64,000 nucleotides of DNA, taken from positions 2,108,001 through 2,172,000 of the forward strand of contig CAWJLW010000006.1 of NCBI GenBank assembly GCA_963843795.1. Direction: 5' to 3'. The notes beneath the pieces were generated by a model, which did not search any database, had not been told where the DNA came from, and saw only the letters and a program-made list of their open reading frames with translations. The stretch is from an uncultured bacterium (GTDB lineage Bacteria; Armatimonadota; Abditibacteriia; Abditibacteriales; Abditibacteriaceae). The translations under genes and the position numbers were made by a program. This document shows, piece by piece, positions 1,248-55,706 of the stretch (the first letter of the stretch is position 1; each line of letters opens with the position of its first letter).

Positions 1248-2831
1248 TCAACGTCCTTCGCGTTTCAATTCGACGGGAACCACGATTGGCGCGGTGGGTG
1301 GCGGCGTTTGTCCGGGATCGGCCCACGCGAAGCGACCGACGGCGCGATCCAGATTGGCGCGCGCGATTTCATAATCGTAAACCGCTTGCGTGGCGCTGGT
1401 TTGCGCGTTGAACAATTGCGTTTGTGCGTTCACGATGTCCAGAATAATGCCCAACCCCAAGCGATATTTTTCGGTCGCTGCGGTGAGATTAATCTGCGCT
1501 TGTTCGACCAGAACGCGCGCGTTGGCAATGCGCTCAATTTGACCGGAAATATCGGTGTAACCAGCTTCGACTTCGGCCTCGGCATCTTTTTCCAACTGTT
1601 CCAGATTTAAACGACTGGCCGCCAGTTCATCTTGCGCGGCACGCTTATCGGCGCGCCGCCCACCGCCATCGAAAATCGGCACATTTAGACCAACGCCAAG
1701 CTGCAAACGTCGGTCGCTCGTCGAGCGCGGATCGAGATTAAAACCCGCACTCGCTGTCACTTGCGGCTTTTGTTCGATGCGCGCCAAAGCTACCGAACTT
1801 TCGCTTTGCTGCACTGCAGCACGGCTCTGCACCAAATCGGGACGTAGATTGCGCGCTTGTTCGAGATATTCATCCAGCGTTTCTAATTGCGGCACTTGGG
1901 GCGGCTCAATTTGCAAAATTTCTGTCGCTGCAGGTAACTCGGCCAGTTCCGGCACTTGAGTTCCCGCTTCGATTTCATCAGGCGTCAAAGGCGTGGATTG
2001 GCTGGGAACTTCATTTATTCCAGCGATAGCCGTAATGCGCGGCGATTGTTCTAATTCCAAAGCCGGGCCGCGTCCCAAACCCAACACATTGCGAAAGTTG
2101 ACCCGCGCTACGGCGAGATTTTTCTGCGCCGTGACTTGATCGAAACGCGCCTGTCGCAGCGCGACTTGCACGCTGAGGATATCGACGCGCGCGACAGTTC
2201 CGGCTGCGATTTGCGCGCGCACCTGTTGCACTTGCTGTTCGGCCAAAGCGACTTGTCCGGCGAACTGCTGGCTCAATTTTTCCTGCCGCAATTGTTCATA
2301 AAACGCTTGGGCGACTTGAAAAGCCAAGCTGCTGCGCGCGCTGCCAAAACTGCCGACCGCGCTCTGACTGCGCGCCTGCGCCGAGCGCACGCGCTGTCGC
2401 GTGCGCCCGCCATCGAACAAGCTCTGCGACACGGCAATGTCGGTCGAAGTTGTGCCACTGGAGCCGCCGCTGATAATACCGCCAGGAACGCCGTTGCTAT
2501 CGGGCAGCACGATGACCGAATTGTTGTTGAGATAATCGTAGCCGACGCGCCCGGTAACTTGCGGCGCATAGCCCGCGCGCGCTGATTTGATACTTTCCTG
2601 CGCACTGGATGCTTGCAACTGCGCGGCGCCCGGCCCGCCTTGCGTGCGCAGCGCGATGCGAATGCTTTCTTCCAGCGAAAGCGGACTGGCAAGTACTTGC
2701 TCATCTGCTGGCGAATCGGTAGAAATTGCAAACGCTGGCGCGCTTTGTGGAGGCGCAGTTTCCTGTGCCTTGGCGTGCAGAGAAACGGCGCATAAAGCGA
2801 GCGTGCACTGCAAAGTCGGTGACAATTTCAT
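1248..2831 (-). CDS. TolC-family outer membrane efflux protein
   Basis: Signal peptide MKLSPTLQCTLALCAVSLHAKA; LSLEESIRIAL, SQSLFDGG, NVPIFDGG, EKYRLGLGIILDIVNAQ, ARANLDRAVG OEP repeats; start trimmed to ATG 2831. Confidence 0.9.
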   Translation of the reverse strand: MKLSPTLQCTLALCAVSLHAKAQETAPPQSAPAFAISTDSPADEQVLASPLSLEESIRIALRTQGGPGAAQLQASSAQESIKSARAGYAPQVTGRVGYDYLNNNSVIVLPDSNGVPGGIISGGSSGTTSTDIAVSQSLFDGGRTRQRVRSAQARSQSAVGSFGSARSSLAFQVAQAFYEQLRQEKLSQQFAGQVALAEQQVQQVRAQIAAGTVARVDILSVQVALRQARFDQVTAQKNLAVARVNFRNVLGLGRGPALELEQSPRITAIAGINEVPSQSTPLTPDEIEAGTQVPELAELPAATEILQIEPPQVPQLETLDEYLEQARNLRPDLVQSRAAVQQSESSVALARIEQKPQVTASAGFNLDPRSTSDRRLQLGVGLNVPIFDGGGRRADKRAAQDELAASRLNLEQLEKDAEAEVEAGYTDISGQIERIANARVLVEQAQINLTAATEKYRLGLGIILDIVNAQTQLFNAQTSATQAVYDYEIARANLDRAVGRFAWADPGQTPPPTAPIVVPVELKREGR

Positions 2832-2863
2832 AGTTGTGTCCTGCTGCAAGTACTTGCAACACT

Positions 2864-4012
2864 TCATTTGGCGATGATGCGACCCAGCCACAATGTGTTA
2901 TCGCCTTTGCCCTGACCGATTAAACCGGCAGCGTCCATCACAAAAATTTGCTTGACCTGATCCAAATCGAGTTGATTGTTATTGTCTTTCGAATCATCGG
3001 AAGGCTTGAAATCGGCGAAATCAGCGTCCACCATTTTGGGCTTCACGTCGCCCGCGACGAGCGTTGTGAAATTGTATTTGCCACCGCTTTCTTCTTCCAG
3101 TTGCACGATGAGAACCGCCGGTTTTTCCGAAGCGATTTGAAAGCTCAACTGCTTTTTGCCAGCTAAAATGCCGGTCGTTAGCGGCTTGATCATGGCGGAG
3201 ATGCGCGCCGGTGCCTGTTGATATTTGGCCTGCAAAGCGTTGTTTTCGGGCAATTCTGCTTTGGCGCGTTCGAGCGCGATGTTGCCCATGCCCAGCCACG
3301 AAACCTGCGGGCTCAAAAACTGATCAATACTGATTGCATCTTTGGCAACTTCGGTTTGCGGAGCTTCGGGCAGCGGCTTGCTGCTGAGCCTCACATCATC
3401 GACCCACAAAACACGCGGCCCGGAAGCGATGTCGAGCAATCGCGCGATTGGGCTATTGACATCGCCCTGCACGAAAAGCTGATTAAAATCCAGAAATGCC
3501 AAAGCATCGATTTTCTCCAGGTCGAGCTTGCCGTTGGCATCTTTGGGATCGTCGGGGCCGGTTTGCAACCGAAAATCTTCCACCTTCAACTCCACGGGCT
3601 GCCAGCGATTACTTACCAGCGAAACCGGCACCACGAAACGTCCGCCGCCCTGCTCGTTGAGCGCAACGATGAGCGGCGTATCGTGATCGGATTTGAGCGT
3701 CATTGTCAACGTTTTCAAGCTGCTGAGTGCACCGGTGGCCATCGGCGCGGCCAGCGCGTTGTAACCACCGTTGGCCACTTCGTAATCGAATTGCAGCGCG
3801 CCGGTTCCGACTTTGGTACCTTCGCGCGCCGGTGAGATTTTCCCCTTTTCGCCAATCACAACCCATTCGCCGACACCGTTTTCAAAGTCGCGTGCGTACA
3901 AAGGTTCCGGTAACTGAGGTGGCTGCGCTTGCGCCTCATGTTCCGAAAATGCGGAAACCGAAATCACGCCACTCAGCAATGTCAATAAAGCCAACTTCCG
4001 ATAATTTTTCAT
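2864..4012 (-). CDS. Secreted protein with two tandem galactose-binding-like carbohydrate-binding domains (CBM11/CIA30-like)
   Basis: Signal peptide; internal duplication (LIVALNEQGGGRF...DANGKLDLEKI / LIVQLEEESGGKY...DNNNQLDLDQV). Confidence 0.6.
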   Translation of the reverse strand: MKNYRKLALLTLLSGVISVSAFSEHEAQAQPPQLPEPLYARDFENGVGEWVVIGEKGKISPAREGTKVGTGALQFDYEVANGGYNALAAPMATGALSSLKTLTMTLKSDHDTPLIVALNEQGGGRFVVPVSLVSNRWQPVELKVEDFRLQTGPDDPKDANGKLDLEKIDALAFLDFNQLFVQGDVNSPIARLLDIASGPRVLWVDDVRLSSKPLPEAPQTEVAKDAISIDQFLSPQVSWLGMGNIALERAKAELPENNALQAKYQQAPARISAMIKPLTTGILAGKKQLSFQIASEKPAVLIVQLEEESGGKYNFTTLVAGDVKPKMVDADFADFKPSDDSKDNNNQLDLDQVKQIFVMDAAGLIGQGKGDNTLWLGRIIAK

Positions 4013-4092
4013 CGTATTCTCCTCTGGTTCACCGTCAACTTTACAGTGCGAATAGTAACCCTACGAAATTCGCTCAACAATGCTGCGTTCGA

Positions 4093-5097: not shown

Positions 5098-5183
5098 ACC
5101 GTTGTCTCCTGTTTTCACTACAAGTACCTGCCTGATACATGCCGCGACCTCTGCAGGAAGTTGCGACGAAGTTATACAGAAGT

Positions 5184-6773
5184 CTATGCTGATGTCGGAA
5201 GTTCAATCATGGCGATGCTCACTTGAACGCCGTTATCAATTCGTGCTAATTCCAGTTGCCAATTGTTGGCTTCACAAATGGCTTGACAAATGGCGAGACC
5301 CAAACCGTTGCCGCCGGTTTGCGAATGGCGCGCGGCGTCGGGTCGATAAAAGGGTTGCAGCCATTTTTCAATGGGTTCGGAGTCGTTGGTCACGTTCGCG
5401 CCCGAGTTATCTACCGATTCCACCGCATTCCACACGCGCAGCTGGGGCATCGCATTTTGCAATTCGACTTTGATCTGGCTATCGGCGGGCGCATATTTAA
5501 CCGCATTCTCTAAGAGGTTGCGCGCGAGCATGGAAGCGTGAGTGGGTGCACACTCGATTGCAACGGCATCATCTGGTGCAAGTACTTGCAGGTCGAGATG
5601 GCGCGCATCAATGGTTTTCAAAAGCGGCGAAAGCGCCAAATCGCACACCTCCACTAAATCTAACATCTCGCGCGGCGGCTGCGCGCTCGCTGCGTGCAGT
5701 TGATTGAGCGTGAGTAAATCACGGACCAGATCAGTAAGGCGCTGAGTTTGAACGCTCGCTTCTTCCAACGTTTGCCGATAAGTTTCGGCATCGCGCGGAC
5801 GGCTCAAAGCCACCTGCAAATGTCCCGAAAGCGCTTGTAGCGGTGTGCGCAATTCGTGCGAGGCGGCGGTGTGAAACTGTTCCTGCGCGCGTGCCGAAGC
5901 ACCGACGGCGCTTAGCAATTCGTTGAGCGTGCCAACTAATTCGCGCATTTCAGCATCGGGCGAAGGCGACTGCAAATTAATCTGTGGCGCATTATGTAAC
6001 CCCGCGCTGCGCGCGATGTGACGCGCCTGACCCGATAGCCGATGAATTGGTGATAACGTGCGTCCGACCAAAGCCCACGCGCCCAGTCCCGCCGCTACCG
6101 CCACGACCAGACAAAGCAGCCACAAGTTGCGCGCTTGATCGTTGAGCGTGCGCTCGACGCGTTCCCAAGGCACACCAACCGTAACTTCAAGCGGCCCGAA
6201 AGCGAAATAGGTCGCGCGCCACGCCGCGCTGTTAGTTCTTACCGGCAGTTCGCCTTCGATCACGCGCGTACCGCCGCTGGTAATTTCAACGATCTGCCCC
6301 TTGTCCAAAGCCTTGCCATCTTCACTCCTGAGCCACCGCTGGCCCATCAGCGCGCGCCGATCGGGTGAAAGCGGCGGCGCGCTGCTGAAATTATCCACAA
6401 CTTCTGACCCCGAACGACGACGCGGACGACGTGAATCTTCGTCGCCATTTTCGCTGCTTCGATTTTCATTATCGTTGCTTCGCGGCGGGCGATTGCGCGA
6501 ACGCGGTTGCAGCCACACGACAACATCGGATTCGATGCGGCGCGTTGAAGAACGCGTATTGCGGGCAGCGAGCAAACGCACTATATCGCGCGCATCGGTT
6601 CCAGTTGTTAACTGAGCACGCACATCACGCGATGCGCTACGCAAAATAATTTGCGCGCGATACTCCGAGGCACGCCGCGCGTTCCACACGAGCGCCATCC
6701 CAATCATCGCCATCACGATGACAATCGCCATCACAAAGCCCGAAGTCATGCGCGCTCGAATCGAATGAAACAT
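5184..6773 (-). CDS. Membrane sensor histidine kinase (HAMP-HisKA-HATPase)
   Basis: Two TM segments, ASHELRTPL H-box, NLLENAVKY N-box, GGNGLGLAI G2 box; downstream of a response regulator. Confidence 0.92.
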   Translation of the reverse strand: MFHSIRARMTSGFVMAIVIVMAMIGMALVWNARRASEYRAQIILRSASRDVRAQLTTGTDARDIVRLLAARNTRSSTRRIESDVVVWLQPRSRNRPPRSNDNENRSSENGDEDSRRPRRRSGSEVVDNFSSAPPLSPDRRALMGQRWLRSEDGKALDKGQIVEITSGGTRVIEGELPVRTNSAAWRATYFAFGPLEVTVGVPWERVERTLNDQARNLWLLCLVVAVAAGLGAWALVGRTLSPIHRLSGQARHIARSAGLHNAPQINLQSPSPDAEMRELVGTLNELLSAVGASARAQEQFHTAASHELRTPLQALSGHLQVALSRPRDAETYRQTLEEASVQTQRLTDLVRDLLTLNQLHAASAQPPREMLDLVEVCDLALSPLLKTIDARHLDLQVLAPDDAVAIECAPTHASMLARNLLENAVKYAPADSQIKVELQNAMPQLRVWNAVESVDNSGANVTNDSEPIEKWLQPFYRPDAARHSQTGGNGLGLAICQAICEANNWQLELARIDNGVQVSIAMIELPTSA

Positions 6774-12540: not shown

Positions 12541-13323
12541 ATGAACATCATTTCGTCGCGTCAGCATCCGCTGTGCAAGCGTGTGCGCGAACTGCATTCG
12601 TCCAAAGGTCGCCGCAAGCGCAAATCCTATCTCATCGAAGGCGGCAACGGCGTTGGCGCGGCGATTCAGGCGCGCGCGCCCATCGAGCAAATTCTGGTCG
12701 CACCCGACCGCATCGGGCAAGAATGGCAGGAATTGGCTAGCGCCGTCAGTGTGCCGATTCAATGGGTTGAAGACGATTTGCTGGCTTATCTTAGCGAAGC
12801 CCAAAGCGCGCCCGATGTGATGGCCATTGCGCCACTGCCGAATACGCATAGCGATTGGGAATTGAACGGAATGCTGCTGGTTTTGGATGGCATTGGCGAT
12901 CCCGGCAACGCGGGAACTTTGCTACGCGCAGCCGATGCAAGTGGCGCGCAAGCGGTGATTTTCACACGCGGCAGTGTTGACGCATTCTCGCCCAAAGTGA
13001 TTCGCGCAGCAGCCGGCAGTTCTTTTCATCTTCCGCGCTGGGATCTGGACGGACTGGAAGCCCATGAGATAGTGCAAGTACTTGCCGAGCGCAATATTCC
13101 GATTATCACCGCACAAGCGCATAACGGAACGGATGCTTTCGATTTCGCTTGGCCCACGCGCTGCGCCCTGGTTCTGGGCCACGAAACGCGAGGCATCAGC
13201 AAAGAATTTGAAGCCGCAGCACGCACGCAAGTCACGCTTCCGCTCTATGGCCGCGCCGAATCGCTGAATGTAGCGATGGCAGGCACTCTGCTTTTATATG
13301 CGTGGCGCCAAAATCAGAGTTGA
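12541..13323 (+). CDS. TrmH/SpoU-family RNA methyltransferase
   Basis: LDGIGDPGNAGTLLRAADA, LVLGHETRGIS, AESLNVAMAG SPOUT motifs. Confidence 0.93.
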   Translation: MNIISSRQHPLCKRVRELHSSKGRRKRKSYLIEGGNGVGAAIQARAPIEQILVAPDRIGQEWQELASAVSVPIQWVEDDLLAYLSEAQSAPDVMAIAPLPNTHSDWELNGMLLVLDGIGDPGNAGTLLRAADASGAQAVIFTRGSVDAFSPKVIRAAAGSSFHLPRWDLDGLEAHEIVQVLAERNIPIITAQAHNGTDAFDFAWPTRCALVLGHETRGISKEFEAAARTQVTLPLYGRAESLNVAMAGTLLLYAWRQNQS

Positions 13324-15156: not shown

Positions 15157-16440
15157 ATGCCAATCCACATCGCACGATTCCTGCGTTCGCGAGTGTTTTT
15201 GTGGCCCGTATTGTTCGCAGTATTATGGCTACTAGCCACACTCGCGGGCATCATCGCGCCTTCGGAACGATTTCACATCGCGCTGCCGATTTCGTGGCTT
15301 TTCAGCGGATTGTTGTGCGGCGTTTGGAAAATCGAAAAGCTTCGTCATTTAGTTCCTTCAATTCTGATTTGCACCTGCGCGGTTTCGTTCGGTTTGTGGC
15401 AGTTAGTTTCAGAGCAGGCGCGTGCCATTGAAGGCGTGGCCAGTGTAAATGAACTGGTTTGGAAAATATTGCACATCGGCAGCATTCTCGTGCTGTTTGG
15501 TTTGTGGTCGAAGTTGTGGCAACTACCGCTCAAAAATCTCAAACTTACACTTTGGAAAAGTGCGACGCGCGGCATTGTGCGCACGCTGGCGATTGTGAGC
15601 TTGGCGCCGTTTGTCTTTGCGAGCTTCAACGCTCATCGCACCAAAATTGGCAACCGTTTCGACCCCAAAAGTGCCGATAATCTCAATTTTGAAACCATCG
15701 ATTTTCGCGCTGAAGATGGGGCGCGATTGCACGGATGGTGGATTCCCGCCGATAAGGCAACGCGCAAGACCGTCGTGGTGTGTCACGGCGTAGGCGCAAA
15801 CGCTAGCGTTTTTTTGGGCGTCGCGCCGTTTTTGCATCGCGCCGGTTTCAATGTGTTCACATTCGATTTTCGAGGTCACGGCGATAGCAGCGGCCACACG
15901 GTTTCGTTCGGTTTTCACGAGGCTGCTGATGTGCGCGCCGCCTGCAAGTACTTGCAGAACGCGAAAAACCAAAACGCGCTGGCATTATATGGATTTTCGA
16001 TGGGAGGAGGAGCGGTTTTGTTGAGCTTTGCGCCGCGTTTCACAGACGATTACAAAGTGGTGCGAGCGGTTATTGTCGATTCGGCCTTCGCTGAATTCGA
16101 GCCGTTAGTTGAACGCCAGTTTTCAATGATGCCCGCCTCTTGGCGACCGTTGGCGGCGGGCATTGTCGGATTTTGCTCGCAGCTTGAAATTGGAGTGACA
16201 CCTGCGCGCATCGCACCGAAAAGCGTTGTCGCGCGCATTACTCCGCGCCCATTGCTGATTATTCACGGCGACGCGGACCAACTCATTCCCTTGGAACAGG
16301 CACGTCACTTGTTTGCAGCGGCACGAATGCCTAAGCAGTTGCAAATCGTGTCGCGCGCCGGTCATTGTCGTTGTCGTCTGGTAGCGCCCGCGATCTACGA
16401 AAAGCGTGTTACCAACTGGCTTCGAGCGGCATTAAATTAG
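15157..16440 (+). CDS. Membrane-anchored alpha/beta hydrolase
   Basis: N-terminal TM helices; LHGWW, CHG, FDFRGHGDS, GFSMGG nucleophile, IIHGDADQLIP, AGH. Confidence 0.85.
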   Translation: MPIHIARFLRSRVFLWPVLFAVLWLLATLAGIIAPSERFHIALPISWLFSGLLCGVWKIEKLRHLVPSILICTCAVSFGLWQLVSEQARAIEGVASVNELVWKILHIGSILVLFGLWSKLWQLPLKNLKLTLWKSATRGIVRTLAIVSLAPFVFASFNAHRTKIGNRFDPKSADNLNFETIDFRAEDGARLHGWWIPADKATRKTVVVCHGVGANASVFLGVAPFLHRAGFNVFTFDFRGHGDSSGHTVSFGFHEAADVRAACKYLQNAKNQNALALYGFSMGGGAVLLSFAPRFTDDYKVVRAVIVDSAFAEFEPLVERQFSMMPASWRPLAAGIVGFCSQLEIGVTPARIAPKSVVARITPRPLLIIHGDADQLIPLEQARHLFAAARMPKQLQIVSRAGHCRCRLVAPAIYEKRVTNWLRAALN

Positions 16441-18762: not shown

Positions 18763-18828
18763 CTGATTTGACGCACCAAAAAAGCCGCTGCAAGTACTTG
18801 CAGCGGCTTTTTTGGTGCGTCAAATCAG
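18763..18828. repeat. 66-bp perfect palindrome centred on the 12-mer, between convergent pyrH and J-domain genes (likely bidirectional terminator)
   Basis: CTGATTTGACGCACCAAAAAAGCCGCTGCAAGT|ACTTGCAGCGGCTTTTTTGGTGCGTCAAATCAG. Confidence 0.95.
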
Positions 18829-22279: not shown

Positions 22280-23029
22280 TCAATCAAACTTCACATCGCC
22301 CGCAAGCACTTGCCTCACACCATTAGTCGTTGTCACCAAAAGCGCGCCACCGTCGTCGACGCCGCGCAACACGCCGTAAAACTTCTCGTTTTCCTGCACG
22401 ATTTGCACGACCTCGCCGCGCCCGTAACAGCGCGTTTCCCAGGCAGCGCGCACGTTTTCCCAATTGCCATTTTGCAGCTGCGTGCAAGTACTTGCCAGGT
22501 GTTTTAAACACGTATTTTCGACTGCGCGCAAGCTCAATTCGCGCTCACATTCCAACCGCAAAGAAGAGGCCGGAAAAATCGGACGTTCGGGCAATTGTCC
22601 GTTTGCGTGCAGCACATTAATGCCGATGCCGACAATCAGAAAATCGACGCGCCCGTTTTTCAGTTGCGATTCGCACAGAATGCCGCCGACTTTCCGATTA
22701 TGAACCAGAATGTCGTTTGGCCATTTCACCTGCGCATTTAACCCACAAACTTCCTCAATCGCGTGCGCCATCGCGACTGCCGCGCCCAAAGTTGCGTGTG
22801 CAACTGTTGGAATTTCGCGTACGACCATCGAAAACAGCAAGCCGCAATTTGGTGGCGAAAACCAATCGCGCCCGCGCCGTCCGCGCCCCGCGCTTTGTTC
22901 GCTCGCGATAACTACCGCTCCGGTTGGCGCATCGTTTTCGGCCCACTCGCGCGCAGCATCATTGGTGGAATCGATGATTTCGTAGCGACGCAAAGGCGCG
23001 CCGTTTGGTGTGGTTTCGCTGGTAAACAT
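22280..23029 (-). CDS. birA: Biotin--[acetyl-CoA-carboxylase] ligase (no HTH)
   Basis: IDSTN, EQSAGRGRRGRDW, KWPNDI, KVGGILCE, VGIGINV. Confidence 0.95.
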   Translation of the reverse strand: MFTSETTPNGAPLRRYEIIDSTNDAAREWAENDAPTGAVVIASEQSAGRGRRGRDWFSPPNCGLLFSMVVREIPTVAHATLGAAVAMAHAIEEVCGLNAQVKWPNDILVHNRKVGGILCESQLKNGRVDFLIVGIGINVLHANGQLPERPIFPASSLRLECERELSLRAVENTCLKHLASTCTQLQNGNWENVRAAWETRCYGRGEVVQIVQENEKFYGVLRGVDDGGALLVTTTNGVRQVLAGDVKFD

Positions 23030-27457: not shown

Positions 27458-27597
27458 AATTTTCACGCCTTTGATTGAGTTGAAATTGAGTTGCTAAATT
27501 GAATTTGCTGTGTTTAAAGAATGACAAATCTGGAGCAAAAATGCCACAAAAGCGCACTGCAAGTACTTGCAGCGCGCTTTTGTGGGTTCAACTCAAT

Positions 27598-32234: not shown

Positions 32235-33212
32235 ATGAACACGCCGATTCGCGTCGCTATCACGGGCGCTGCCGGACAAATTGGATACGCGCTGGCCTTT
32301 CGCATCGCTGCGGGCCAGATGTTTGGGCCAGAAACGCCGGTTATTTTGCATCTACTCGAAATCCCGCCCGCAGAAAAAGCATTGGCGGGCATCGTGATGG
32401 AATTGGATGATTGCGCATTTCCACTTTTGCAAAGCATAGTGCCGACCGTCGATGCCGACGAAGGTTTCCGCAATGTGAACTGGGCGCTTTTAGTTGGCTC
32501 GGTTCCACGCAAAGTCGGTATGACGCGCGCCGATTTACTTCATGTGAACGGTCAAATTTTCGTGACTCAAGGCCAAAATATTCAAGCTAACGCTGCAAGT
32601 GACGTGCAAGTACTTACGGTTGGCAATCCGTGCAACACCAATTGTCTCATCGCCATGCACAACGCGCCCGATGTGCCCCCTGAACGTTGGTTTGCCATGA
32701 CGCGCTTGGACGAAAATCGCGCGCGCACTCAAATCGCTCAGCGCGCTGGAGTTTCGGTGAACGAAGTCGAGCGCATCGCCATTTGGGGCAATCATTCTTC
32801 GACGATGTTTCCCGATTTCACCAATGCACGCATCCAGAACAAGCCCGCGACCGAAAAACTCGAACGCGATTGGCTTGAAGGTGACTTTCTCTCGACCGTC
32901 CAAGAACGCGGACTGGCCATTTTGCAGGCGCGCGGCGCTTCTTCAGCGGCTTCAGCGGCCAATGCCATTATCGACAGCGTAGTTTCGGCCACAACAGAAC
33001 AACACGACTGGCATTCGCTGTGTGTGGCTTCCGACGGTTCGTATGGTGTCGAGGAAGGTTTGATTTCGTCGTTTCCCACGCGCTACGAACATGGCAAAGT
33101 CACAATCGTGCCCGATGTCAGGTTGGAAAAATACGCTCAAGAAAAAATCGCGGCTTCGGTAGCAGAGCTGCGCGCTGAAAAAGCGGCGGTGAGCGATTTG
33201 TTACCGCAATAA
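32235..33212 (+). CDS. mdh: Malate dehydrogenase (MDH type 2)
   Basis: [53 protein letters not shown]. Confidence 0.96.
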
Positions 33213-33230: not shown

Positions 33231-33268
33231 GCAAAAGCGCCCTGCAAGTACTTGCAGGGCGCTTTTGC
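33231..33268. terminator. 38-bp palindrome with 12-mer core between convergent mdh and DUF1559 genes
   Basis: GCAAAAGCGCCCTGCAAGT|ACTTGCAGGGCGCTTTTGC. Confidence 0.85.
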
Positions 33269-34070: not shown

Positions 34071-34453
34071 AATTTTTCTCCTTAAGTTGCCCTGACTGCT
34101 TAAAAGAATATCGGCCTTATGTTACAAACACATACACGCTGCGTAACTATTTAGTAAATTTCAGGAGGTGAAACTGCAAACTGTTATGACGCGGGATTAA
34201 TATAGATTTTCCTGAAGATTGGGCTTATAAGAGAATTCGAAGAGATTTGTTTTTGCTAATCGGTTTGAAAAATTATTATGTCTCAACATAAATATTTGGA
34301 TTGCACGCAAAAAATGTAAGGGAATTAGAACGTTGGAATAGAAACGCTCAAACGTCTCCAAATATCTTATTTAACTTTGCGAAGAAAACAAAAAGGCTCC
34401 CTAAGTACTTGGAAGTACTTAGGGAGCCTTTTTGTTTCTAGAGTTTAGGTGTC

Positions 34454-34756: not shown

Positions 34757-37111
34757 TTAAAATGAACGCACCAGTTCGACTTGCAGCAGGTTCTGCTTGC
34801 TATTGTTATTGGGAATTCCACCCACTCGGTCGGTCGAAACGCGCTGTAAGCGTCCGACCAAAGTCAGCGAACGCGAGAAATCATAAGCCGCACGCATTCG
34901 CAGAGTTTGCTGGCGCGTGGCGTTGACCTGTTCCGAACCCAAATCAGCAAATTCTACTCCGCCGCCCAATCGCAATTTTGGCGTCGCGCGCCAGTAGCCT
35001 TCCAAACGCAAACTTTCTGCACCGCCCTGTAGCGAATCTTGCGTCGGCGCGACCGGATAACCCAACGGGCTGTTGCGATAATAATAATCGCTGTCGCTTA
35101 GGTTCTGCAACGCCAGATAAGTGCGCCCTTGCAAATTGGCATATTCCGCGAATAAGCCCAACTTTGACGGATCGCGCGGCGTAAAGACGTGCAGGCCCAA
35201 CAAAGAACCGATGCGATTGCGCACCAAATTGCTCGAGTTCACGCCGATATCATCGGCCAAAAATTCGGCCCAGCCGCGTACCCCGCGCGCTACGCTCTGC
35301 TCGATATAAGCCTGCACCAGCGAGTTGCCGTTATCGGCAGCCGTGTTGCGCTTGCGCAAACGTTCGACCGTGAACAATGGAATCGGTGAAAAAGTGGAGA
35401 TAAACGACAGTGGATCGAGCTGGTCTTTGGGTAACAACAGCGTTTCGGCGATGCCGATGCGCGTTTGTTTGCCGACCTGAACGTGCAAATTATGACCATA
35501 CAATGAACGCTGCCCGCCCAGCGGGCCACGATTTAAGGGCGCATACAGCGCATCGACCTGATAAGAGCCGCGCTTGAAGCTGGCTTGCAAGGTGTTGAGT
35601 GGGCCGGAAGTGTCGCCCAACAGCAAAGTGCCGAAATGGCCCGGTCCCCACCAAATTTCGTCGCGTCCCGCTCGTAGTTTCAGGCCGCGCAGCAGTTTGT
35701 TGGCGTTGTAATCGACATAAGCGCGTCGCACCAGAAAATTACTGTCGTTACTGCCTTTACGTGCATCGCTGCCGCCTTCGATTTGCGCAAAAAAGCCTAA
35801 CTTATCGCCCGAGGTGCCGAAAATATCGGTACGCGTATCGAAACCGCTGCGCGTGCGTCGCCCACCCTGACGTTCCGAAAACGGCTCGATTACGTTAGCG
35901 GTGTCACCAAAAACCCCGCTCAAGCGCGTTTGCCCAGCGATTCCAAACGTAAAACCGCTGCCCTTGGCGAGTTCGTTCAGATCGGCAACCGGCACGCCCA
36001 GAGTTTGCAATTCGGGACGAAAATCCCGCGTCAAAATTTGCAGTGCCGCGCGCTCTTTGCCATTCAACTCGCCATCGCGCGCATCGACGTTGCCAATCGC
36101 TTGTTTGACCAAACCGGCAATTTGCGCGCGCGAAAGCGTGAAATCTTCCTCACTGCGATGGCGGCGCACGCCATCGTCGCGCAGCAACTGTGCCGGATAT
36201 TGCGTGATGAGCTTCGAGGATGCCAGCGACGCCAGCAATTCGTAAGTCGGCGTATTGAATGGCACCACGGCGTTGGAGACGCCAGTTTCGTAAGCGATGG
36301 GCGCAGTTGGAATCGGGCCGGACGGCGGGTTATCGCGCGTGGTGTCGATAACAACGACCGAGCCATCGGTAATGCCAGTTCCGGGCGCATTTGTCGAAGG
36401 CGCCATCGCCATCAGCGAACCATTGTCGCCAACTTGAACCGTGCCCGCGTTGGGATCAGTCCACACAATTTCGCCGCGACTCTGGTTTTCTTCGACAATT
36501 TGAATGCGTGCGATGCCGATAATTTCGCCATTGCGTGTGATGGGAATTTTCGAGTTCGTCGTCACACCGCGATCCGCACCGGAACCAAAAGTCACGCGAT
36601 TGTCTTCGATTGCTGTGACAATCATCGATTTCATCGGCGCACCCGAAACCGTCGCGGGCATTGTGGTTCCCGTCACGGTCGCCGTTGGCGGAATAATTGT
36701 TACAGGAGTCTTCGCTGGAGGTGTTACCGGCGTCACAACTGGCGGCTCAACAACAACCGGCGGTGCGACAACCGGCGGTGCGACCAGATCTTGCACCGCG
36801 ATGAACTGTCCATTATCGCCCACTGAGACCACGAAATCTTCATCTGATTCGATAATGCGCGCCGTCGATTCGTCGGGACGCACCTCAAGTACTTGCACGC
36901 GCGCCTGCACGCGCCCGTTGCGTGTGATGCCATAAACCGCACCACGCACAGCGCCATCATTGGCGCCGATACCGAGCAGAATTTGTTTGTCCTGCACCGC
37001 AGTAATCAGCGCATTTTTCGGCGGCTCGTTTTGCGCCCAAACCGGGCGCGCGGCGATGGTAGCGTTGAGACAAAGAGCGGCAATGGGCAAAGACAGATAG
37101 CGAAAACGCAC
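34757..37111 (-). CDS. Outer-membrane protein with capsule-assembly Wzi-like C-terminal barrel and repeated N-terminal beta domains
   Basis: GTG start with signal peptide; GRDEIWWGPGHFGTLLLGD Wzi-like motif; terminal Phe; two IGxG..GV repeats. Confidence 0.65.
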   Translation of the reverse strand: MRFRYLSLPIAALCLNATIAARPVWAQNEPPKNALITAVQDKQILLGIGANDGAVRGAVYGITRNGRVQARVQVLEVRPDESTARIIESDEDFVVSVGDNGQFIAVQDLVAPPVVAPPVVVEPPVVTPVTPPAKTPVTIIPPTATVTGTTMPATVSGAPMKSMIVTAIEDNRVTFGSGADRGVTTNSKIPITRNGEIIGIARIQIVEENQSRGEIVWTDPNAGTVQVGDNGSLMAMAPSTNAPGTGITDGSVVVIDTTRDNPPSGPIPTAPIAYETGVSNAVVPFNTPTYELLASLASSKLITQYPAQLLRDDGVRRHRSEEDFTLSRAQIAGLVKQAIGNVDARDGELNGKERAALQILTRDFRPELQTLGVPVADLNELAKGSGFTFGIAGQTRLSGVFGDTANVIEPFSERQGGRRTRSGFDTRTDIFGTSGDKLGFFAQIEGGSDARKGSNDSNFLVRRAYVDYNANKLLRGLKLRAGRDEIWWGPGHFGTLLLGDTSGPLNTLQASFKRGSYQVDALYAPLNRGPLGGQRSLYGHNLHVQVGKQTRIGIAETLLLPKDQLDPLSFISTFSPIPLFTVERLRKRNTAADNGNSLVQAYIEQSVARGVRGWAEFLADDIGVNSSNLVRNRIGSLLGLHVFTPRDPSKLGLFAEYANLQGRTYLALQNLSDSDYYYRNSPLGYPVAPTQDSLQGGAESLRLEGYWRATPKLRLGGGVEFADLGSEQVNATRQQTLRMRAAYDFSRSLTLVGRLQRVSTDRVGGIPNNNSKQNLLQVELVRSF

Positions 37112-37211
37112 GGCAAATTCCTTTTCCGACAAAACGTTGAGTGAACGATTCCTTAAAACTGTGCTCGCAGTATAACAATCGCTTTCGGATAATTGTCGCG
37201 TGCTGCAAGAC

Positions 37212-39006: not shown

Positions 39007-39393
39007 CTACTTGGCAACATCGGCAAGTACTTGCCACGCGCGTTCGCGCACCACATCGGTGATTTTTTCGTCGTGGCCTAAATAATCGCCCATCAAAAAT
39101 TCAACGTTTTCATAGCGCTGCGCAGCATCTTCCAGCAAACCGGGTAAATCGTCGGCGACGTGCGTGCCCGAATGCAGGAAATACGGCACCGCAATTACGC
39201 GCGATGCGCCTTTTTCCACACAAGTCGCAATCGCGGTTGGAATATCGGGTTCGTTAAGTTCCATAAACCCGACTTCGACAATTGGATAAATTGCGCGCGA
39301 GCGAATTCGCTCGACAACTTTGAACATATCGCCATTGGAAGCCGGACGTGGGCTGCCATGCACCATCACTAAAAGTGCTGTGTTTTCGTTCAT
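39007..39393 (-). CDS. CbiX/SirB-type chelatase single domain
   Basis: VMVHGSPR, VGFMELNEP, VPYFLHSGTHVADDLP. Confidence 0.88.
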   Translation of the reverse strand: MNENTALLVMVHGSPRPASNGDMFKVVERIRSRAIYPIVEVGFMELNEPDIPTAIATCVEKGASRVIAVPYFLHSGTHVADDLPGLLEDAAQRYENVEFLMGDYLGHDEKITDVVRERAWQVLADVAK

Positions 39394-40717: not shown

Positions 40718-42349
40718 TTACCGCTTGGCAATTGCATAATCCTGCACACTGCGCACACCGACCACGCGCTGCTCGGCCTGCGCACGCAACGCGGTGAGAA
40801 GCGCTTGCGCGGTATCCAGAGAAGTCAAGCACGGCACGCCGTGTTCGACTGCGGCGCGGCGAATGCGTAGCCCGTCGTGATCGCTCGACCGGTCGCGTTC
40901 GGGCGTATTGAGTAGAAAATCGACTTCGGGCGCGGTCAAAACTGTCATCAAATTCGGCGCGTCTTCGCGAATTTTGCGCACCGTTTCACATGCAACATCG
41001 TGCGCGGCAAGTACTTGCGCTGTGCCTTGGGTCGCGTAAATTTTGTAGCCCATTTCGGCGAAACCTTTCACAATCGGCGCACCTTCTTCTTTGTCATGGT
41101 TAGAAAGCGTTACCAAAAGCGCGCCGTGCGCTTGCGAACCGTCGGAATGCGGCTGACCCGGCAGCGGAATATCATAACCGCTGGCGACCATCGCTTTATA
41201 CAAGGCGCGCGGAAACTGGTTATCCACGCCCATAATTTCGCCCGTCGATTTCATTTCCGGACCAAGACCGGTATCAACCATCGTGAGCTTTTGGAACGAG
41301 AAAACAGGTGCTTTCACTGCAACCTGATCGGGTGTCGGATACAAACCGGTTTCATAACCGAGTTCTTTCAAAGTCGCGCCCAGCATCACTTTGGTCGCCA
41401 CGCCGACCATTGGCACGCCGGTGATTTTCGACAGATACGGAACCGTGCGCGAAGCGCGCGGATTGACTTCAATAATATAAGCCTGATCGTTTTCGATGAC
41501 ATATTGAATGTTCATCAAGCCTTTCACTTCCAAGGCTTTGGCCATGCGAATCGCATAATCTTCGATTTGCGCGATGACTTTATCGCTCAGGGTTTGCGGC
41601 GGATAAACCGCCATCGAATCGCCCGAATGCACGCCCGCGCGCTCGATATGCTCCATAATTCCGGGCAACAAACAATCGACGCCATCGGAAATTACGTCCA
41701 CTTCGGCTTCTTTGCCGACAATATATTTATCGACCAGAACCGGACGTTCGGAACTCACATCAACCGCGTTGCGCATATAGGATTGTAAATCTGCATCGTT
41801 CCACACGATTTCCATTGCGCGCCCGCCCAAAACGTAACTGGGACGCACTAAAACGGGATAACCGATTTCACCGGCGACCCTCACTGCAGCATCGCCTTCG
41901 GTCACGGCTTTGCCCGGTGGCTTAGGAATATCAAGTTTCACCAGCAAATCATCGAATCGTTCGCGATCTTCAGCCAAATCAATGGAATCGTATTGCGTGC
42001 CGAGAATTTTCACGCCCGCTTCGGAAAGTGGGCGCGCTAAGTTGATAGCGGTCTGTCCGCCGAACTGCACGACGACACCCAACGGTTGTTCGCGGTCGAT
42101 GATATTGAGCACGTCTTCGGTGGTCAATGGCTCGAAATAAAGACGGTCGGAGGTGTCGAAATCGGTGGAAACGGTTTCAGGATTGTTATTGATAACGATG
42201 GCTTCAAAGCCCAATTCGCGCGCCGTGCGCGTGCAATGCACGCTGGCGTAATCGAATTCAATGCCCTGCCCGATACGAATCGGCCCACTGCCGATGATGA
42301 TGACTTTACCCTGCGTTTTTTCTGCGCTATTCAAAATATCGTCTCCCAA
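40718..42349 (-). CDS. carB: Carbamoyl-phosphate synthase large chain, C-terminal half only (carbamate phosphorylation plus MGS domain)
   Basis: Starts at [82 protein letters not shown]. Confidence 0.9.
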
Positions 42350-42503: not shown

Positions 42504-42509
42504 GACAAT

Positions 42510-43853: not shown

Positions 43854-45285
43854 TCAACCATGCGCACGCAGCGACCAATTCTGGCAGACCAAGCCGTTGA
43901 GCGTCCACAGATTGAGCGCCGCGCCATCTTGCAGCGCGCAATTGGCAACGTCCAAAGCCAGTTTTCCGCCACCGCTTTTCGGCAATAAAACGTAAGTGCC
44001 ATCGGCGTTGGGGCGCAGTTCCCACAACTGATTGTCTTTGCCATCGAAAGCCGATAAATCGACTTTGGCGCCCGGCTGTGTGGCATCGCCGATGACACTC
44101 AAAGCGCGTTTATCCTCAGCATTGAGAATCGCGTAGAAACCTTCGCTTTGATGCTGCAAACTCCAGCGTTGCGCGGGCAGGTTTTTGTCGTAGAAAGTTT
44201 GCAGCGCGGTGCCTTTGGTATCGCCCGCGCTTTGTGGTGAAAGCAAACCGTGCGTGGGCAGGGCGGAAACGAGGGCTTGCGGCGTGGCATCGAAAAGCGC
44301 GCGCGGCCAACCGTCAGCGTCCCACGAAAGTCGATACAAACTCAAATGATCGGCTCCGCCATAAACGCGCGACCATTCATAATGGAGCGAAACCTGAAAA
44401 TCGTCTCCGATTTTCAAAATGCCCGCGTGGCCCGGCCCGACCAAATCGTCAATTGGCCGTCCGCTCGTATCGTCGAAGCGCGAAGTCAAGAAAATCGTGC
44501 CGCCGCCTTCGCGCAGATCTTTGCCGTCTTTATCGAGATACGGCCCGCGCACATCGCGCGCGCGCCCGACGCGAATGTTGTAACTGCTCGCGGCATCGGC
44601 GCAGCATTTGTCCCAGTTCACCCACAGATAATAGTAGCCATCGTGAAAATAAATTGTCGGTGCTTCGATGGAATTGGCGCGATCATCGGGACGCGATGCG
44701 ATAGTCGTGATTTCGCTGTTTGGCAAGGTTTTTCCCGTAGCTTTATCGAGTTCGACCAATTGCAAGCCGCCAAAAAACGAGCCAAAGCTAAGCCACAGTT
44801 TGCCTTGCGCATCGGTAAAAACGCACGGATCAATGGCGTTGAAACGTTCGCCGCGCTTCGATTGCACGACCATTCCCGCATCTTTCCAGCTGTCGTGGAT
44901 CAAGCGTGTCATTGTGGCGACGACCGATTGTCGAAACGTTGCTGCCGAAAGTCGAAACCGAATAATAGAGAAAATAGCGTTCACCGACTTGATGCACATC
45001 GGGCGCCCACACAATGTTGCTGGTAATTGCGGGCACAGCGGTTTTCACCCACGCGGGCAACGTCTCAAAAACCGAGCCTTGCCGCGTCCAATGCCGCAAA
45101 TCGGTTGATGACCATTGCGGAATTCCGCGTCCGGTACCGTAAACCCAGTAGGTGTCGCCGCGCTTGACAATAGTCGATGGGTCGCGCGCCACTGCATCGG
45201 TTTCGATGGCGGGCGCGGGCGCGAAAAAGCTCAAAAAACACAATGCAAGTACTTGCAGGGCGATGAGACGACAGAAAAGTTTCAT
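43854..45285 (-). CDS. Secreted GH43 arabinanase-like hydrolase with C-terminal ricin-B lectin; frameshifted near 44895-44930
   Basis: Signal peptide from ATG 45285; ARDPSTIV, WAPDV, NAIDP, GSFFGG, IEAP, GPGH; QxW ricin repeats. Confidence 0.88.
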
Positions 45286-46125
45286 TCTTTGCCACTCGAA
45301 AATTTCGCGCCTTCCACGATATAACGCTGCATCAGCAAAAACACGATAACCAAGGGGCGCGACGCCAACTGCCGCCGCCGTGAACAATTGCGCTAAATCA
45401 ATGGTTTGTGCGGTGAGAAACGTTGAAAGCACAACTTGGACTGTCCACGCGGAAGGGTCTTGTCCGATGACCAAGGGCCACAAAAACGAGTTCCAACTAC
45501 CGATAAAAGTGAGAATACCCAGCGCCATCACGATGCTGACCGAGTTCGGCATCAGCAAGCGCCAGTAAACGCCGAAATAGCTCAAGCCGTCCAAGCGCCC
45601 GGCTTCTTCGATCTCGGCGGGAAAGCGCAGATAAAACTGGCGAAATAGGAAAATCGAAAACGCGCTAAAGACGCCGGGCGCGATAATGCCCCAGCGCGTA
45701 TTGACGCCGTTAAGATACGCCATCACCGCATACGACGGCACGAAAGTCACCGCGCCCGGAATCATCAGCGTCGCCACAATCACGAAGAAAACCACGCTGC
45801 GCCCGCGCGCCGGGATGCGCGCCAACGCATAACCGGCCATCGAGGAAAACAGCATTTGCAGCACCAACGTAACGACCGCAATGAACAGCGAATTGCTCAG
45901 TCCGGTCAACATCGGCGCTTCAGGATTGTTGAACAATTTGCTGAAGTTGCCCCACTGTGGCGGACTGGGTAGCCAGCGCCAGGTCGAAGACGTGATTTGG
46001 TCGCTGGTCATCAGAGCATTGCGCACAATGATGTAAAACGGTAGCAGGAACAAAAACGCCAGCAACAATAACAGCGCATAACGCAGCACGGTGCCGATGC
46101 CAGTTTTCGATTCGCGCGTCTCCAT
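45282..46125 (-). CDS. Carbohydrate ABC transporter permease (MalG-like), +1 frameshift at 45354-45357
   Basis: EIEEAGRLDG EAA motif, SWNSFLWPL; removing one C gives APLVIVFLLMQRYIVEGAKFSSGKE*, whose TGA overlaps the GH43 ATG. Confidence 0.9.
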
Positions 46126-51811: not shown

Positions 51812-52210
51812 ATGTTTCGCTCAAGCATCGCCGCTATCTCACCTTGATGACAAATCAATGGGCATCATTACCGTAAAAATCATTGATGTCGTGCAAGTAC
51901 TTGGAAAGCCAACAACGTCACTTTCCACTTTCCCATCGTCTTTCTCAACCACGCGACAGCGTACATCGAAAATACGATCAGCAATCCTATTACTACGTTT
52001 TGGCCAAAGTTGCTAATTGGGGTTCAGCGGGCGAACTTTGATACCCAAGCGTTGGAGTAATAATTAAAACGCCCCACAAGTTGAGATGCAAGTACTTGCG
52101 GGGCGATTTATGCGTGTATGAGAAAGCGTGGCTCATGGAAATTCAATTAATTAACTCATGAATCATAGTTCCGCGCCATCAGATACTTCAAATACTGCAG
52201 ACAATTTTAT

Positions 52211-53257: not shown

Positions 53258-53483
53258 AATTCAATCTCAAATTTCAGTCGCCAAACCCTTTCATGCCATA
53301 ACTTGACACGATTTTGAGCAGTTTACAAAGCACCTTCTAACACGTTTGAGCAATTTCTATAAGTGCCTCGCAACACGGGTTGCATCTGTAGATAACAACA
53401 GGGATGCACCAAAATTGCCACACAACAAAACCACGTTGTGCAGTACGTGCCAATCTGTTGGCACGTACTTGCCAGAGACTAAT

Positions 53484-54812
53484 TCACAAGTCGAGCGCGC
53501 CGTCATACAAATCGAGTTCGGGATTCTGGCTGAGAATTTTAAAAGTGTCGCGCACTTGCCGAAAACCGTTTTGCATTAAAAAACCGGCATCGCGGCCATA
53601 ACTTTTAATGCCCAAAACGAAGAAATTCGGCTCGCCGCTATCCAACAAATCCGGTTCATCGGGCGCGAATTTCCATTTGTCAATTGCGGGAACTTTGGCT
53701 TTTTCAGCTTCGTTTTTTTCTTCCTTGTGAGCATAGCCGGTCGAAAGACCAACGCCCGCGCGGTGATTATTTTCAATCAATGCGGTCGCCAAAACGAACG
53801 GACCATCGGTTGCGGGATGAACATGAACTTCAATTTCTTGCCACAGGGTTTTGTCAGGGCGAAAACCAGTGTGCGCGGCGATATTATCAACGCGAATAGT
53901 TTCCAGATGGGTAGTTTGGCCATCGAAAGTCGATAAAGTCGCCTGCAAGTACTTGCCATCGGCTTCGACGGCGTCCAGAACTGTGCGCGGGCGAAAATCG
54001 ACGCGCGCATTTTCCGCAAGCTCGTTGGCGCGTCGGTGCAATTGGTCGCGGTGCGGCGAAGGATCATCTGCAATTAAAGTGTAGGGCAAACCGTGTTCGG
54101 GCACGTCGCGGCGCACGGCCCAGGTAATGCGCGTTTCAGGATCATCGAACAAAGCGCCAATTGAACGCAACGTAGAAGCAGCGGAATGCCCGCTGCCGAT
54201 GACCAAAGTGTGATGCCCTTTGTAGCGCGCCGTATCGCGTCCGGGCAAGTTTCCAGCACCGTCGATGTCGGGAATATGATAGTCAATGCGATTTTGTAGC
54301 TCGATTTCGCCCACAGCGGGCATTCCACCGTTGCCCGCGAAATTGGGAGTGGCGTAAACGCCGCTGGCATCGATCACAGCGTCGAAATGCTCGACGCGCT
54401 GGCCGACCGGCGTTTGAATCAACACGCGAAACGGAAATTCATTTCGTCGATTATCACCGATAAAATCGGAGCGCAAACAGCGTTCGCGTCCCAATTGTAG
54501 AACCGGAGTTTGAGGAAAAATGCGACCGCGCAGCGGTTCCAAACCAGAAAGTTTAGTAACGTAATCGGCCAATTCATCGCCGCTGGAATTGGTTTCTTCA
54601 GCAGGTAAAGTCGCGCCGCGCTCTTTTAACAAACGCGCGGCCAATGGCGAACGATTGCGCTTCCATTCGGTGAAAACATTGACGTGGCCCCACTGACGCA
54701 CATTTTCGGCCAAACGTCCGCGCTCGAATAATTGCACATCGAAACCGGCTATCGCGCCATATAATGCCGCTTCCATTCCAATCGGCCCGCCGCCGATAAT
54801 TGCCACACGCAT
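53484..54812 (-). CDS. FAD/NAD(P)-dependent oxidoreductase (flavoprotein monooxygenase-like)
   Basis: VAIIGGGPIG, VIDASG, VIGSGHSA, TGFRPD, LGIKSYGR. Confidence 0.85.
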   Translation of the reverse strand: MRVAIIGGGPIGMEAALYGAIAGFDVQLFERGRLAENVRQWGHVNVFTEWKRNRSPLAARLLKERGATLPAEETNSSGDELADYVTKLSGLEPLRGRIFPQTPVLQLGRERCLRSDFIGDNRRNEFPFRVLIQTPVGQRVEHFDAVIDASGVYATPNFAGNGGMPAVGEIELQNRIDYHIPDIDGAGNLPGRDTARYKGHHTLVIGSGHSAASTLRSIGALFDDPETRITWAVRRDVPEHGLPYTLIADDPSPHRDQLHRRANELAENARVDFRPRTVLDAVEADGKYLQATLSTFDGQTTHLETIRVDNIAAHTGFRPDKTLWQEIEVHVHPATDGPFVLATALIENNHRAGVGLSTGYAHKEEKNEAEKAKVPAIDKWKFAPDEPDLLDSGEPNFFVLGIKSYGRDAGFLMQNGFRQVRDTFKILSQNPELDLYDGALDL

Positions 54813-54917
54813 AATTTTTCAGAGATTTAAGCAAAGTTGAAATTTGAATGTCCTGCAAGTACTTGCAGGACATTCATTGAAGAAAACGAGTATTAAACTG
54901 CTTCTGTCAACAGCGTG

Positions 54918-55706
54918 TCAAAGTGTATTTTTGCGTTGTGCGACGACCAACGAGCCGAAAGCAAAAATTGTGCACGATGCCAGAACCGGCAGGTAAGGCA
55001 ATTGAACTTTAGCTTGCGTTGCCTTTTGTTTTGTCAACGCTTCCACGCGCGCCAGATTGTTTTTGTTCACGGCTTCGTCGGGGAAATCGCGCACCAAATC
55101 GCGCCACGTTTGCGCGCTGAGCTGCCATTCGCCCGCGTGTTCGGCGCTGTGCGCCAGACGACGACGCAGCATCTGGCTTTCGTTAGCCGGAGCCTCAGCC
55201 GGAAAATGCGCAACGGCCTGACGATAAGCGTTCAAACTTTCGGGCACCATTTTCTGCAAATCGTAATGCTGACCGGCTTCGTCCCACATATCCCAATTAT
55301 CGGGATTGGCCTTGGTGCCGCGCTGAATAAAAGCGACCGCGTCATCTTTTTTGCCCAAGCTCCACAACAACCAGGCACCAACGCTATAGCTTTCCACGTC
55401 GGTCGGATCGAGCGCGACAATAGCGCGGTGCAATTGAATCGCGCGTTCGTAATCGCCCTTATGAAACGCCTCGTCTGATTTGCGCCAGAAATAATCGAGG
55501 TTGCTTTCGGTCTTGGGATCGAACGGTGCGGAGTGCGCGGCGTGTTCTTCATCGCTTTCTTTGGCGTGCGCAGAATACGGACCCACAGCCGGAGTTTTGG
55601 GGTTGCCCGCCGGAGCTTGCGCTTTGCCCATGTTAGCGACACAAAGTGAAAACGCCACACCCGCAATTAAAAAATGTCCCGTTCGCCCTGCAAGTACTTG
55701 CACCAT
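54918..55706 (-). CDS. TPR-repeat exported protein
   Basis: Signal-like N-terminus, TPR helices (FHKGDYERAI...LDPTD; ANPDNW), C-terminal TM. Confidence 0.7.
   Translation of the reverse strand: MVQVLAGRTGHFLIAGVAFSLCVANMGKAQAPAGNPKTPAVGPYSAHAKESDEEHAAHSAPFDPKTESNLDYFWRKSDEAFHKGDYERAIQLHRAIVALDPTDVESYSVGAWLLWSLGKKDDAVAFIQRGTKANPDNWDMWDEAGQHYDLQKMVPESLNAYRQAVAHFPAEAPANESQMLRRRLAHSAEHAGEWQLSAQTWRDLVRDFPDEAVNKNNLARVEALTKQKATQAKVQLPYLPVLASCTIFAFGSLVVAQRKNTL

Follow-up and report, generated by a model that had tools for sequence, protein, structure and literature searches.

How does a 12-bp palindrome come to lie in protein-coding genes in all three reading frames, and what keeps it there? Here, we address this question for a 64-kb stretch of DNA (the window; GenBank assembly GCA_963843795.1, contig CAWJLW010000006.1, positions 2,108,001 to 2,172,000) from an uncultured bacterium of the family Abditibacteriaceae, in which the exact palindrome GCAAGTACTTGC (the 12-mer) occurs 48 times. 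An initial annotation of the window had proposed that the core is created or kept at the DNA level regardless of terminator function and is reshaping protein sequence, as with highly iterated palindrome 1 (HIP1) and uptake sequences. The source genome (G000, 4.30 Mb), which the names of its homologues likewise assign to this family, was analyzed together with its relatives, with genes called by our own hexamer or codon model and no standard caller.

The 12-mer is a genome-wide word. G000 holds 2,567 exact copies, against 0.1 to 0.4 expected under masked Markov models, with a mean gap of 1,675 bp and mostly 50 to 80 copies in each 100 kb of the main contig, and exact copies outnumber one-mismatch copies (506) about 5:1. 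Among 2,563 classified copies, 741 (29%) lie in genes, 1,799 between genes, and 23 at edges or ends. Those in genes read as QVLA (488), KYL (141), or ASTC (112), and a 12-mer is found in 594 of 3,234 genes, with copies evenly distributed along gene length. QVLA peptides number 557 in the proteome, against 37.7 expected (permutation median, 36; about 15-fold), and 496 of them are spelled CAA-GTA-CTT-GC, against 2.1 expected from codon usage, the over-representation that the initial annotation had proposed to look for. The motif codons are rare in G000 (GTA, 7.5%; CTT, 8.6%). ASTC peptides are enriched about 34-fold (130 versus 3.8 expected; 115 of the 130 motif coded versus 0.4 expected), and 188 of 309 KYL peptides are motif coded versus 12.7 expected. 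The split of one-mismatch copies into synonymous and nonsynonymous (75 versus 83) was uninformative. The 12-mer is thus a species-specific word maintained at the DNA level, both within genes and in the spacers between them, at intervals of about 1.7 kb.

Within the window, all 12 positions at which the initial annotation had placed exact coding copies hold GCAAGTACTTGC, its two near-copies were found as described, and the gene families that it named are backed by Pfam. Ten of the 12 copies lie within called genes in the frames it gave; the coding status of the other two (45245 and 55690) hinges on the choice of start codon. The copies are as follows (strand refers to the gene).

2689 to 2700: QVLA, residue ~44, in a TolC-family (OEP/TolC) gene, 1248 to 2831, minus strand (Pfam and gene call).
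5578 to 5589: QVLA in a sensor histidine kinase (HisKA) gene, 5184 to 6749, minus strand (Pfam and gene call).
13074 to 13085: QVLA in a TrmH/SpoU methyltransferase gene, 12541 to 13323, plus strand (Pfam and gene call).
15944 to 15955: CKYLQ in an alpha/beta hydrolase gene, 15193 to 16440, plus strand (Pfam and gene call).
22484 to 22495: ASTC in birA, 22280 to 23029, minus strand (Pfam BirA and gene call).
25203 to 25214: QVLA in a radical SAM gene, close to its 3' end, 25169 to 26134, minus strand (Pfam and gene call).
29395 to 29406: QVLA in gcvPA (GDC-P), 29160 to 30497, minus strand (Pfam and gene call).
32606 to 32617: one-mismatch copy GCAAGTACTTAC, VQVLT, in mdh, 32235 to 33212, plus strand (Pfam Mdh).
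36885 to 36896: one-mismatch copy TCAAGTACTTGC, VQVLE, in a Wzi-family gene, 34757 to 37132, minus strand (Pfam Wzi).
39023 to 39034: QVLA close to the 3' end of a CbiX gene, 39007 to 39393, minus strand (Pfam and gene call).
41007 to 41018: QVLA in a gene for the C-terminal half of CarB, 40718 to 42349, minus strand (Pfam and gene call).
45245 to 45256: QVLA in the signal-peptide-like start (MKLFCRLIALQVLA) of the N-terminal piece of a GH43 gene, 44833 to 45282, minus strand.
53945 to 53956: GKYLQ in a flavoprotein gene, 53484 to 54812, minus strand (Pfam and gene call).
55690 to 55701: codons 2 to 6 of a TPR gene if the start is the ATG at 55706 (MVQVLAG), otherwise just upstream.

The start at 55706, which would make the last copy coding, is plausible. 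The CarB-like gene encodes 543 aa with the C-terminal half only (ATP-grasp and MGS domains), and the GH43 gene (43854 to 46125) is split by a frameshift, probably from assembly indels, and lies in frame with an upstream ABC permease. An Rfam search of the window gave no match.

Copies in genes and copies in spacers differ in their flanks. The mean arm is 0.84 bp in genes, as expected from the earlier remark that in-gene copies mostly lack long arms, and 9.5 bp in convergent spacers. Spacer copies are often lengthened into inverted repeats with A/T tracts, some of which score as terminator-like. Three examples lie in the window.

18790 to 18801: copy in the spacer that separates pyrH from the convergent gene next to it, with arms aaaaaagccgct and agcggctttttt.
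27544 to 27585 (-): spacer copy centered in a terminator-like hairpin with a T-rich tail.
33231 to 33268: spacer copy extended into a perfect inverted repeat of 38 bp that includes A/T tracts and lies between convergent genes, a predicted bidirectional terminator.

A further terminator-like hairpin (34389 to 34434) is built of two shorter units, TAAGTACTT and CAAGTACTT, and not of the 12-mer. If the 12-mer were a terminator seed, its in-gene copies would arise from codon or mutational bias. Copies with paired arms do occupy 275 of 395 convergent gaps; however, divergent gaps often contain a copy too (237 of 420), and the copies in genes are unpaired and use rare codons. The complementarity of in-gene flanks is no higher than marginal frequencies predict, so these copies are not terminators. 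Rare-codon use and the absence of arm pairing refute the terminator seed as a source of the in-gene copies, and as a general account we consider it extremely improbable. The codon override and the lack of in-gene pairing also uphold the initial claim that the core is kept at the DNA level regardless of terminator function and is reshaping proteins. In all three frames, in-gene flanks are A/T rich at +8 to +10 and +18 to +20 on both sides, relative to frame-matched controls. Unpaired flanks with A/T in helical phase point to a double-stranded, bendable protein site, of which the hairpins would be a secondary use.

Is the word shared by relatives? Exact GCAAGTACTTGC was found at 0 to 3 copies in each of 40 relatives, and 10 of 27 family genomes, G000 included, carry an abundant word of some kind (tagged genomes); the 17 counted as untagged were each screened for unknown words over ~10 to 70 kb (the G042 sample in part). 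Six of the tagged relatives have their own GTAC-core word, or dialect. In G001, of the same genus, it is AAAGTACTTT (1,987 copies); in G009, G012, G015, and G019, CGAGTACTCG (1,834 to 3,166 copies); and in G006, AAGTACGGTCGA (652 + 688 copies, mostly as inverted pairs forming a 24- to 26-bp dyad). Metagenome loci L133 and L156 carry another 24- to 26-bp dyad; in these two and in G006 (L279 to L298) the form is GTAC-N4-GAWWTC-N4-GTAC, with the GTACs 18 bp apart. The other three tagged relatives (G007, G016, and G018) share an unrelated, nonpalindromic, GTAC-free word, CAGCCACG (~2,700 to 3,500 copies), of which 89% lie within genes in the G007 sample and which also forms inverted pairs in G016. 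Two samples hold repeats of other kinds: an abundant CCACAAAAAATGAAGCG repeat in G020 (L269 and L204; 11-kb sample) occurs in tandem and inverted pairs resembling repetitive extragenic palindromes (REP), and repeats starting CAACAAGGCGCTGCACCCGACCGCC in G017 (L089) resemble integron attC sites, which we take to indicate a cassette array.

Wider scans added little. A contig scan with a 16-mer gave at least 36 loci in unrelated taxa with one palindromic copy each and was uninformative; six viral loci held one copy each, and no tagged phage was found among them. A metagenome scan with gcvPA returned 60 loci, three of them above 60% identity. Three DNA sequencing runs yielded no strain variation that could be used at the motif sites, and one of them, the best, is possibly the source sample itself. 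A quick, unfinished ComEC tree (22 of 27 genomes, one very long branch) was too weak to bear on a single origin of the GTAC dialects.

Orthologue comparisons covered 117 to 440 kb of each relative with a tag; of the 1,988 tblastn rows, 801 were used after de-duplication, all with no less than 45% identity and 80 aa. G009, which belongs to another genus, carries its own word at the same codon position at 8 of 31 G000 sites (0.02 expected). The corresponding counts were 3 of 18 for G001, 2 of 13 for G012, 0 of 10 for G007, and 0 of 14 for G016; in untagged relatives, none of 37 aligned sites has GTAC. Shared peptides do not explain the co-location in G009, because where both proteins read VL its count was 7 of 8 versus 10 of 173 (p = 1e-7). 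At sites, the peptides shift with the dialect (QVLA, RVLE, KVLG; KYLQ, EYSN). At the birA site, the same-genus relative carries its own word, AAAGTACTTTG, with the register shifted by three bases, and at the gcvPA site a metagenomic relative reads AAQKLSE. Protein identity flanking the sites is 46% versus 58% overall, and the sites seem to favor loose loops and permissive protein positions.

These alignments also bear on a mobile palindrome, similar to REP or to a miniature inverted-repeat transposable element, that would be spread by an HUH transposase of the REP-associated tyrosine transposase (RAYT) type, or by another transposase, and be inserted into genes in frame. As with REP/RAYT elements and the palindromic insertions of coding regions, many spacer copies form hairpins; the dyads of G006 and L133/L156 would suit such an element, and the G000 protein is longer than its relative at 27% of site alignments versus 6.6% of control windows (by at least four residues at 9.7% versus 2.0%) and shorter at 5% versus 3.9%. 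On the other hand, 68% of 155 site alignments are gapless (controls, 89%), different dialects occupy the same codon across genera, and in-gene copies lack arms and shared flanks. REP elements are almost exclusively extragenic and come with a cognate HUH transposase, whereas 29% of 12-mer copies are in genes, armless, mostly gapless, and swapped between dialects in place. No convincing RAYT was found: the one Y1_Tnp match in G000 was weak and partial (E = 4e-7), and G006 gave no match. The initial annotation had proposed to check whether sites arise by point substitution with no indel. This mostly holds, insofar as 100 of 142 distinct sites have a gapless alignment with one relative or more, and a full gap stands opposite only 4 of the 142; "point substitution only" is too strong, because G000 is longer at 27% of sites versus 6.6%. 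Overall, a mobile palindrome is very unlikely.

In-gene density increases about sixfold with growing distance from the nearest spacer copy (7.7 versus 50 copies per 100 kb) and is flat, as a control, with distance to tag-free gaps. This gradient holds in all four gene-length classes and was repeated in samples of G009, G006, and G012; where a gene is flanked by a copy on just one side, the half nearer to it holds 87 in-gene copies and the farther half 132 (p = 0.003). A copy thus appears to lose added value within ~2 kb of another. Spacing along the genome is over-even (coefficient of variation of gaps, 0.73 versus 0.81 ± 0.01). The largest tag-free stretches inspected (25 to 33 kb) are mobile or foreign DNA with insertion sequences, VirB-like genes, a type I restriction-modification island, and a contractile-injection-like locus (identified by eye from N termini). 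The last of these (G000:C3:2600-27300) has sheath, tube, and baseplate genes; a 33-kb contig end (G000:C6:3590136-3623414; 63% GC) with VirB-like genes is either a foreign element or an assembly chimera. On contig C2, a metal-resistance island mixes words of the G001, G006, and L133 types with a few copies of the genome's own. This island (G000:C2:1400-17400; P-type ATPases, CDF, ZIP, and RND, by eye) also holds a half-converted word, GCAAGTACTTTG.

Even spacing, the symmetry of the site, and bend-prone, hairpin-free flanks in genes would all fit an abundant intracellular dimeric protein that requires one site per 1 to 3 kb (a nucleoid organizer, condensin loader, or nuclease guard), with selection and not transformation as the driving force; the periodicity of HIP1 has been examined for a chromosome-level role (PMC5861425). 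Against such a protein, the 5:1 ratio of exact to one-mismatch copies is unlike that of regulatory sites (by the argument in PMC1626085), motif-free islands of 25 to 33 kb are tolerated, words differ among close relatives, most other family genome samples yielded no abundant word, and no candidate protein was identified. We therefore rate it as quite unlikely.

The GTAC core directs attention to DNA methylation. An orphan beta-class N6/N4 methyltransferase is encoded at G000:C6:2517368-2518135 (nearest solved structure M.RsrI; E = 1.6e-36) and occurs in 22 of 27 family genomes (broken in two), including all seven GTAC-dialect genomes; outside the family, 137 genomes of the phylum gave one weak match. 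No conserved neighbor or restriction partner was found within its 1.5-kb flanks. Thirteen family genomes without a GTAC tag (among them G005, G008, G011, G014, G042, and G022) are depleted of GTAC, with 1 to 33 AGTACT each versus 418 to 1,172 copies of a control word; the methyltransferase is present in 12 of the 13 and absent from the three undepleted genomes (G010, G021, and G023), an association among kin that are not independent. G016, depleted with no detected copy of the gene, is the exception. Genome composition thus suggests that the enzyme may mark GTAC. Many family samples also show strong avoidance of CTAG and GGWCC. A 5-methylcytosine (m5C) methyltransferase (PF00145) is absent from G000 and G001, Dam (PF02086) and MutH were each found in 0 of 5 genomes, and an R.PabI-type GTAC glycosylase in 0 of 27 family genomes by a search that had no positive control. 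In the untagged G010, locus L223 (G010:C1:2120135-2123779) encodes an N6/N4 methyltransferase with a long C-terminal extension, presumably MutH/Sau3AI-like from its look.

By analogy with HIP1, the orphan methyltransferase could mark the GTAC core, and methylation-guided intracellular repair or recombination could make and keep the palindrome with no surface receptor. The perfect palindrome, the distribution of the enzyme (near-absent elsewhere in the phylum), and the family-wide abnormality of GTAC, with depletion tracking the gene, all speak for this account. It partly merges with a transformation-linked tag, because methylated HIP1 raises transformation (10.1101/2024.09.10.611283). The methyltransferase cannot set the 12-bp word, however, because it is equally present where no GTAC tag exists and its sequence is not visibly dialect dependent. 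The HIP1 model involves the m5C enzyme DmtC (PMC4390886), for which G000 and G001 have no counterpart, and neither Dam nor MutH was detected; G016 is depleted with no detected enzyme; and repair alone would leave the phased A/T flanks, the gap filling, and the GTAC-free CAGCCACG unexplained. On balance, we regard this account as doubtful.

The reading that we hold to be somewhat probable is that the 12-mer is a transformation-linked self tag under molecular drive. From the pattern of copies we infer competent cells in which a predicted sequence-specific reader, binding the double-stranded 12-mer with its bendable flanks, would give kin DNA that bears the tag an advantage in uptake or recombination; tagged alleles would in this way keep replacing untagged ones. 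The symmetry of the word suggests a dimeric or orientation-blind receptor. One tag per ~2- to 3-kb fragment would be enough, which would account for the gap filling. The drive would push the word into tolerant protein positions, yielding QVLA, KYL, and ASTC; spacer copies would secondarily be extended into terminators; and a shift in reader specificity would cause old sites to be rewritten around the GTAC core into a new dialect.

The genes that such a tag would call for are present: comEC in 27 of 27 family genomes, comEA in 4 of 5 genomes, and dprA and secretin genes in 5 of 5 each, with those of G000 intact and free of internal stops. Of the 55 prepilin-like motifs in a pilin survey, 45 belong to a single repeat-family type, and the survey gave no basis to single out a receptor; four minor-pilin-like genes beside a likely prepilin peptidase (G000:C6:391000-396300), at a different place from the 45 of the repeat family, are a candidate location for a DNA receptor. 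Identities of ComEC, ComEA, and DprA showed no sign of dialect-linked change.

Several points weigh against a transformation-linked tag. The competence genes do not discriminate, because they are equally present in relatives with no detected abundant word, and we know of no competence experiment for the Abditibacteriaceae. No reader protein for the 12-mer was found; the ComP_DUS domain had no match in any of 5 genomes, nor in any control genome, in a search that did not include PpdA/ComN, the other predicted pilin receptor. The 3'-side subset of the within-gene test was not significant on its own (46 versus 63; p = 0.13), in-gene copies show no mutual repulsion beyond simulation, which is weaker than a strict one-per-fragment rule, and even spacing is also compatible with chromosome-organizing proteins. 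G006 has its own word at 0 of 35 G000 sites. Its long dyad goes with a longer protein at 54% of sites; together with the excess length of G000 proteins given above, this indicates that some sites may be inserted or come in with extra residues. Finally, neither the known DNA uptake sequences (DUS) nor the known uptake signal sequences (USS) are palindromes (PMC12616744).

Of the two analogues offered by the initial annotation, which chose neither, the evidence leans to the uptake-sequence type: the 12-mer appears to behave like an uptake sequence with HIP1-like symmetry. The USS of Pasteurellaceae (Hin-USS, AAGTGCGGT; Apl-USS, ACAAGCGGT) likewise occur about once per 1 to 2 kb, in all gene frames and with exact copies far outnumbering one-mismatch copies, an anomaly described for this type of sequence (PMC1626085). 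They also share A/T tracts (PMC12616744 and PMC7811141), phased in the flanks, permissive protein positions (as do DUS; PMC2817400 and PMC2397512), clade-specific variants, and co-option as terminators. Site alignments are gapped at 24% for USS (PMC1626085) versus 32% here, mostly with no indel in both. USS are asymmetric with one-sided A/T tracts, whereas the 12-mer is a perfect palindrome flanked by such tracts on either side; peptides are enriched ~2-fold for USS versus ~15-fold (QVLA) to ~34-fold (ASTC) here; and uptake specificity has been shown experimentally for USS and is a prediction for the 12-mer. The half-site of G006, AAGTACGGT, is one base off the Hin-USS core, possibly by chance.

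With the DUS of Neisseriaceae (eight dialects, ComP receptor), the 12-mer shares species-level dialects, permissive sites, a similar spacing (~1,500 bp in meningococcus [PMC2397512] versus 1,675 bp), absence from recently acquired DNA, some sites that arise with gaps, and terminator use. DUS are nonpalindromic and form terminators from two inverted copies, whereas here one palindrome is the hairpin center. HIP1 (GCGATCGC) and its variants share the palindrome, the presence in genes and spacers, even spacing, lineage variants, one or more orphan methyltransferases, and a link to transformation (PMC4390886, PMC13756078, 10.1101/2024.09.10.611283, and PMC5861425). HIP1 is 8 bp and GC rich versus 12 bp with a GTAC core, it is common to a phylum whereas words of the GCAAGTACTTGC type change between species, and its enzymes DmtA (Dam type) and DmtC (m5C) fall in PF02086 and PF00145, the two families that gave no match above. 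Chi-type sites are asymmetric and strand skewed; the 12-mer is palindromic, and CAGCCACG showed no strand skew in 18 sampled 20-kb stretches of G007 and G016.

Neither the exact GCAAGTACTTGC nor such words in Abditibacteriaceae were found in the literature, where supplements of genome-wide word surveys could hold the motif, and the tag is thus apparently unreported in this family. To our knowledge, Pasteurellaceae and Neisseriaceae are the only groups with established sequence-specific self tags, and HIP1 is a recent cyanobacterial candidate. A bolder reading, which we put forward tentatively as possible and not as probable, is that an uptake-sequence system has evolved independently for a third time, in the Abditibacteriaceae, and is the first whose species-level dialects are palindromic. 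Its reader would recognize a GTAC-centered word and would have shifted specificity repeatedly, with in-place rewriting and the recoding of hundreds of proteins; methyltransferase licensing is possible, one subclade would have switched to CAGCCACG, and untagged lineages would have purged nearly all of their GTAC. If true, DUS/USS and HIP1 would be linked as members of a single kind of system. The words mark foreign DNA and could help to assign metagenome contigs to species, and uptake and methylome tests look feasible, since the named species Abditibacterium utsteinense is among the homologues. With at least five spellings in 27 genomes, this free-living soil family offers a natural series on the origin of tags and the respelling of whole genomes, and it also lets one ask how far a DNA-level drive rewrites proteins.

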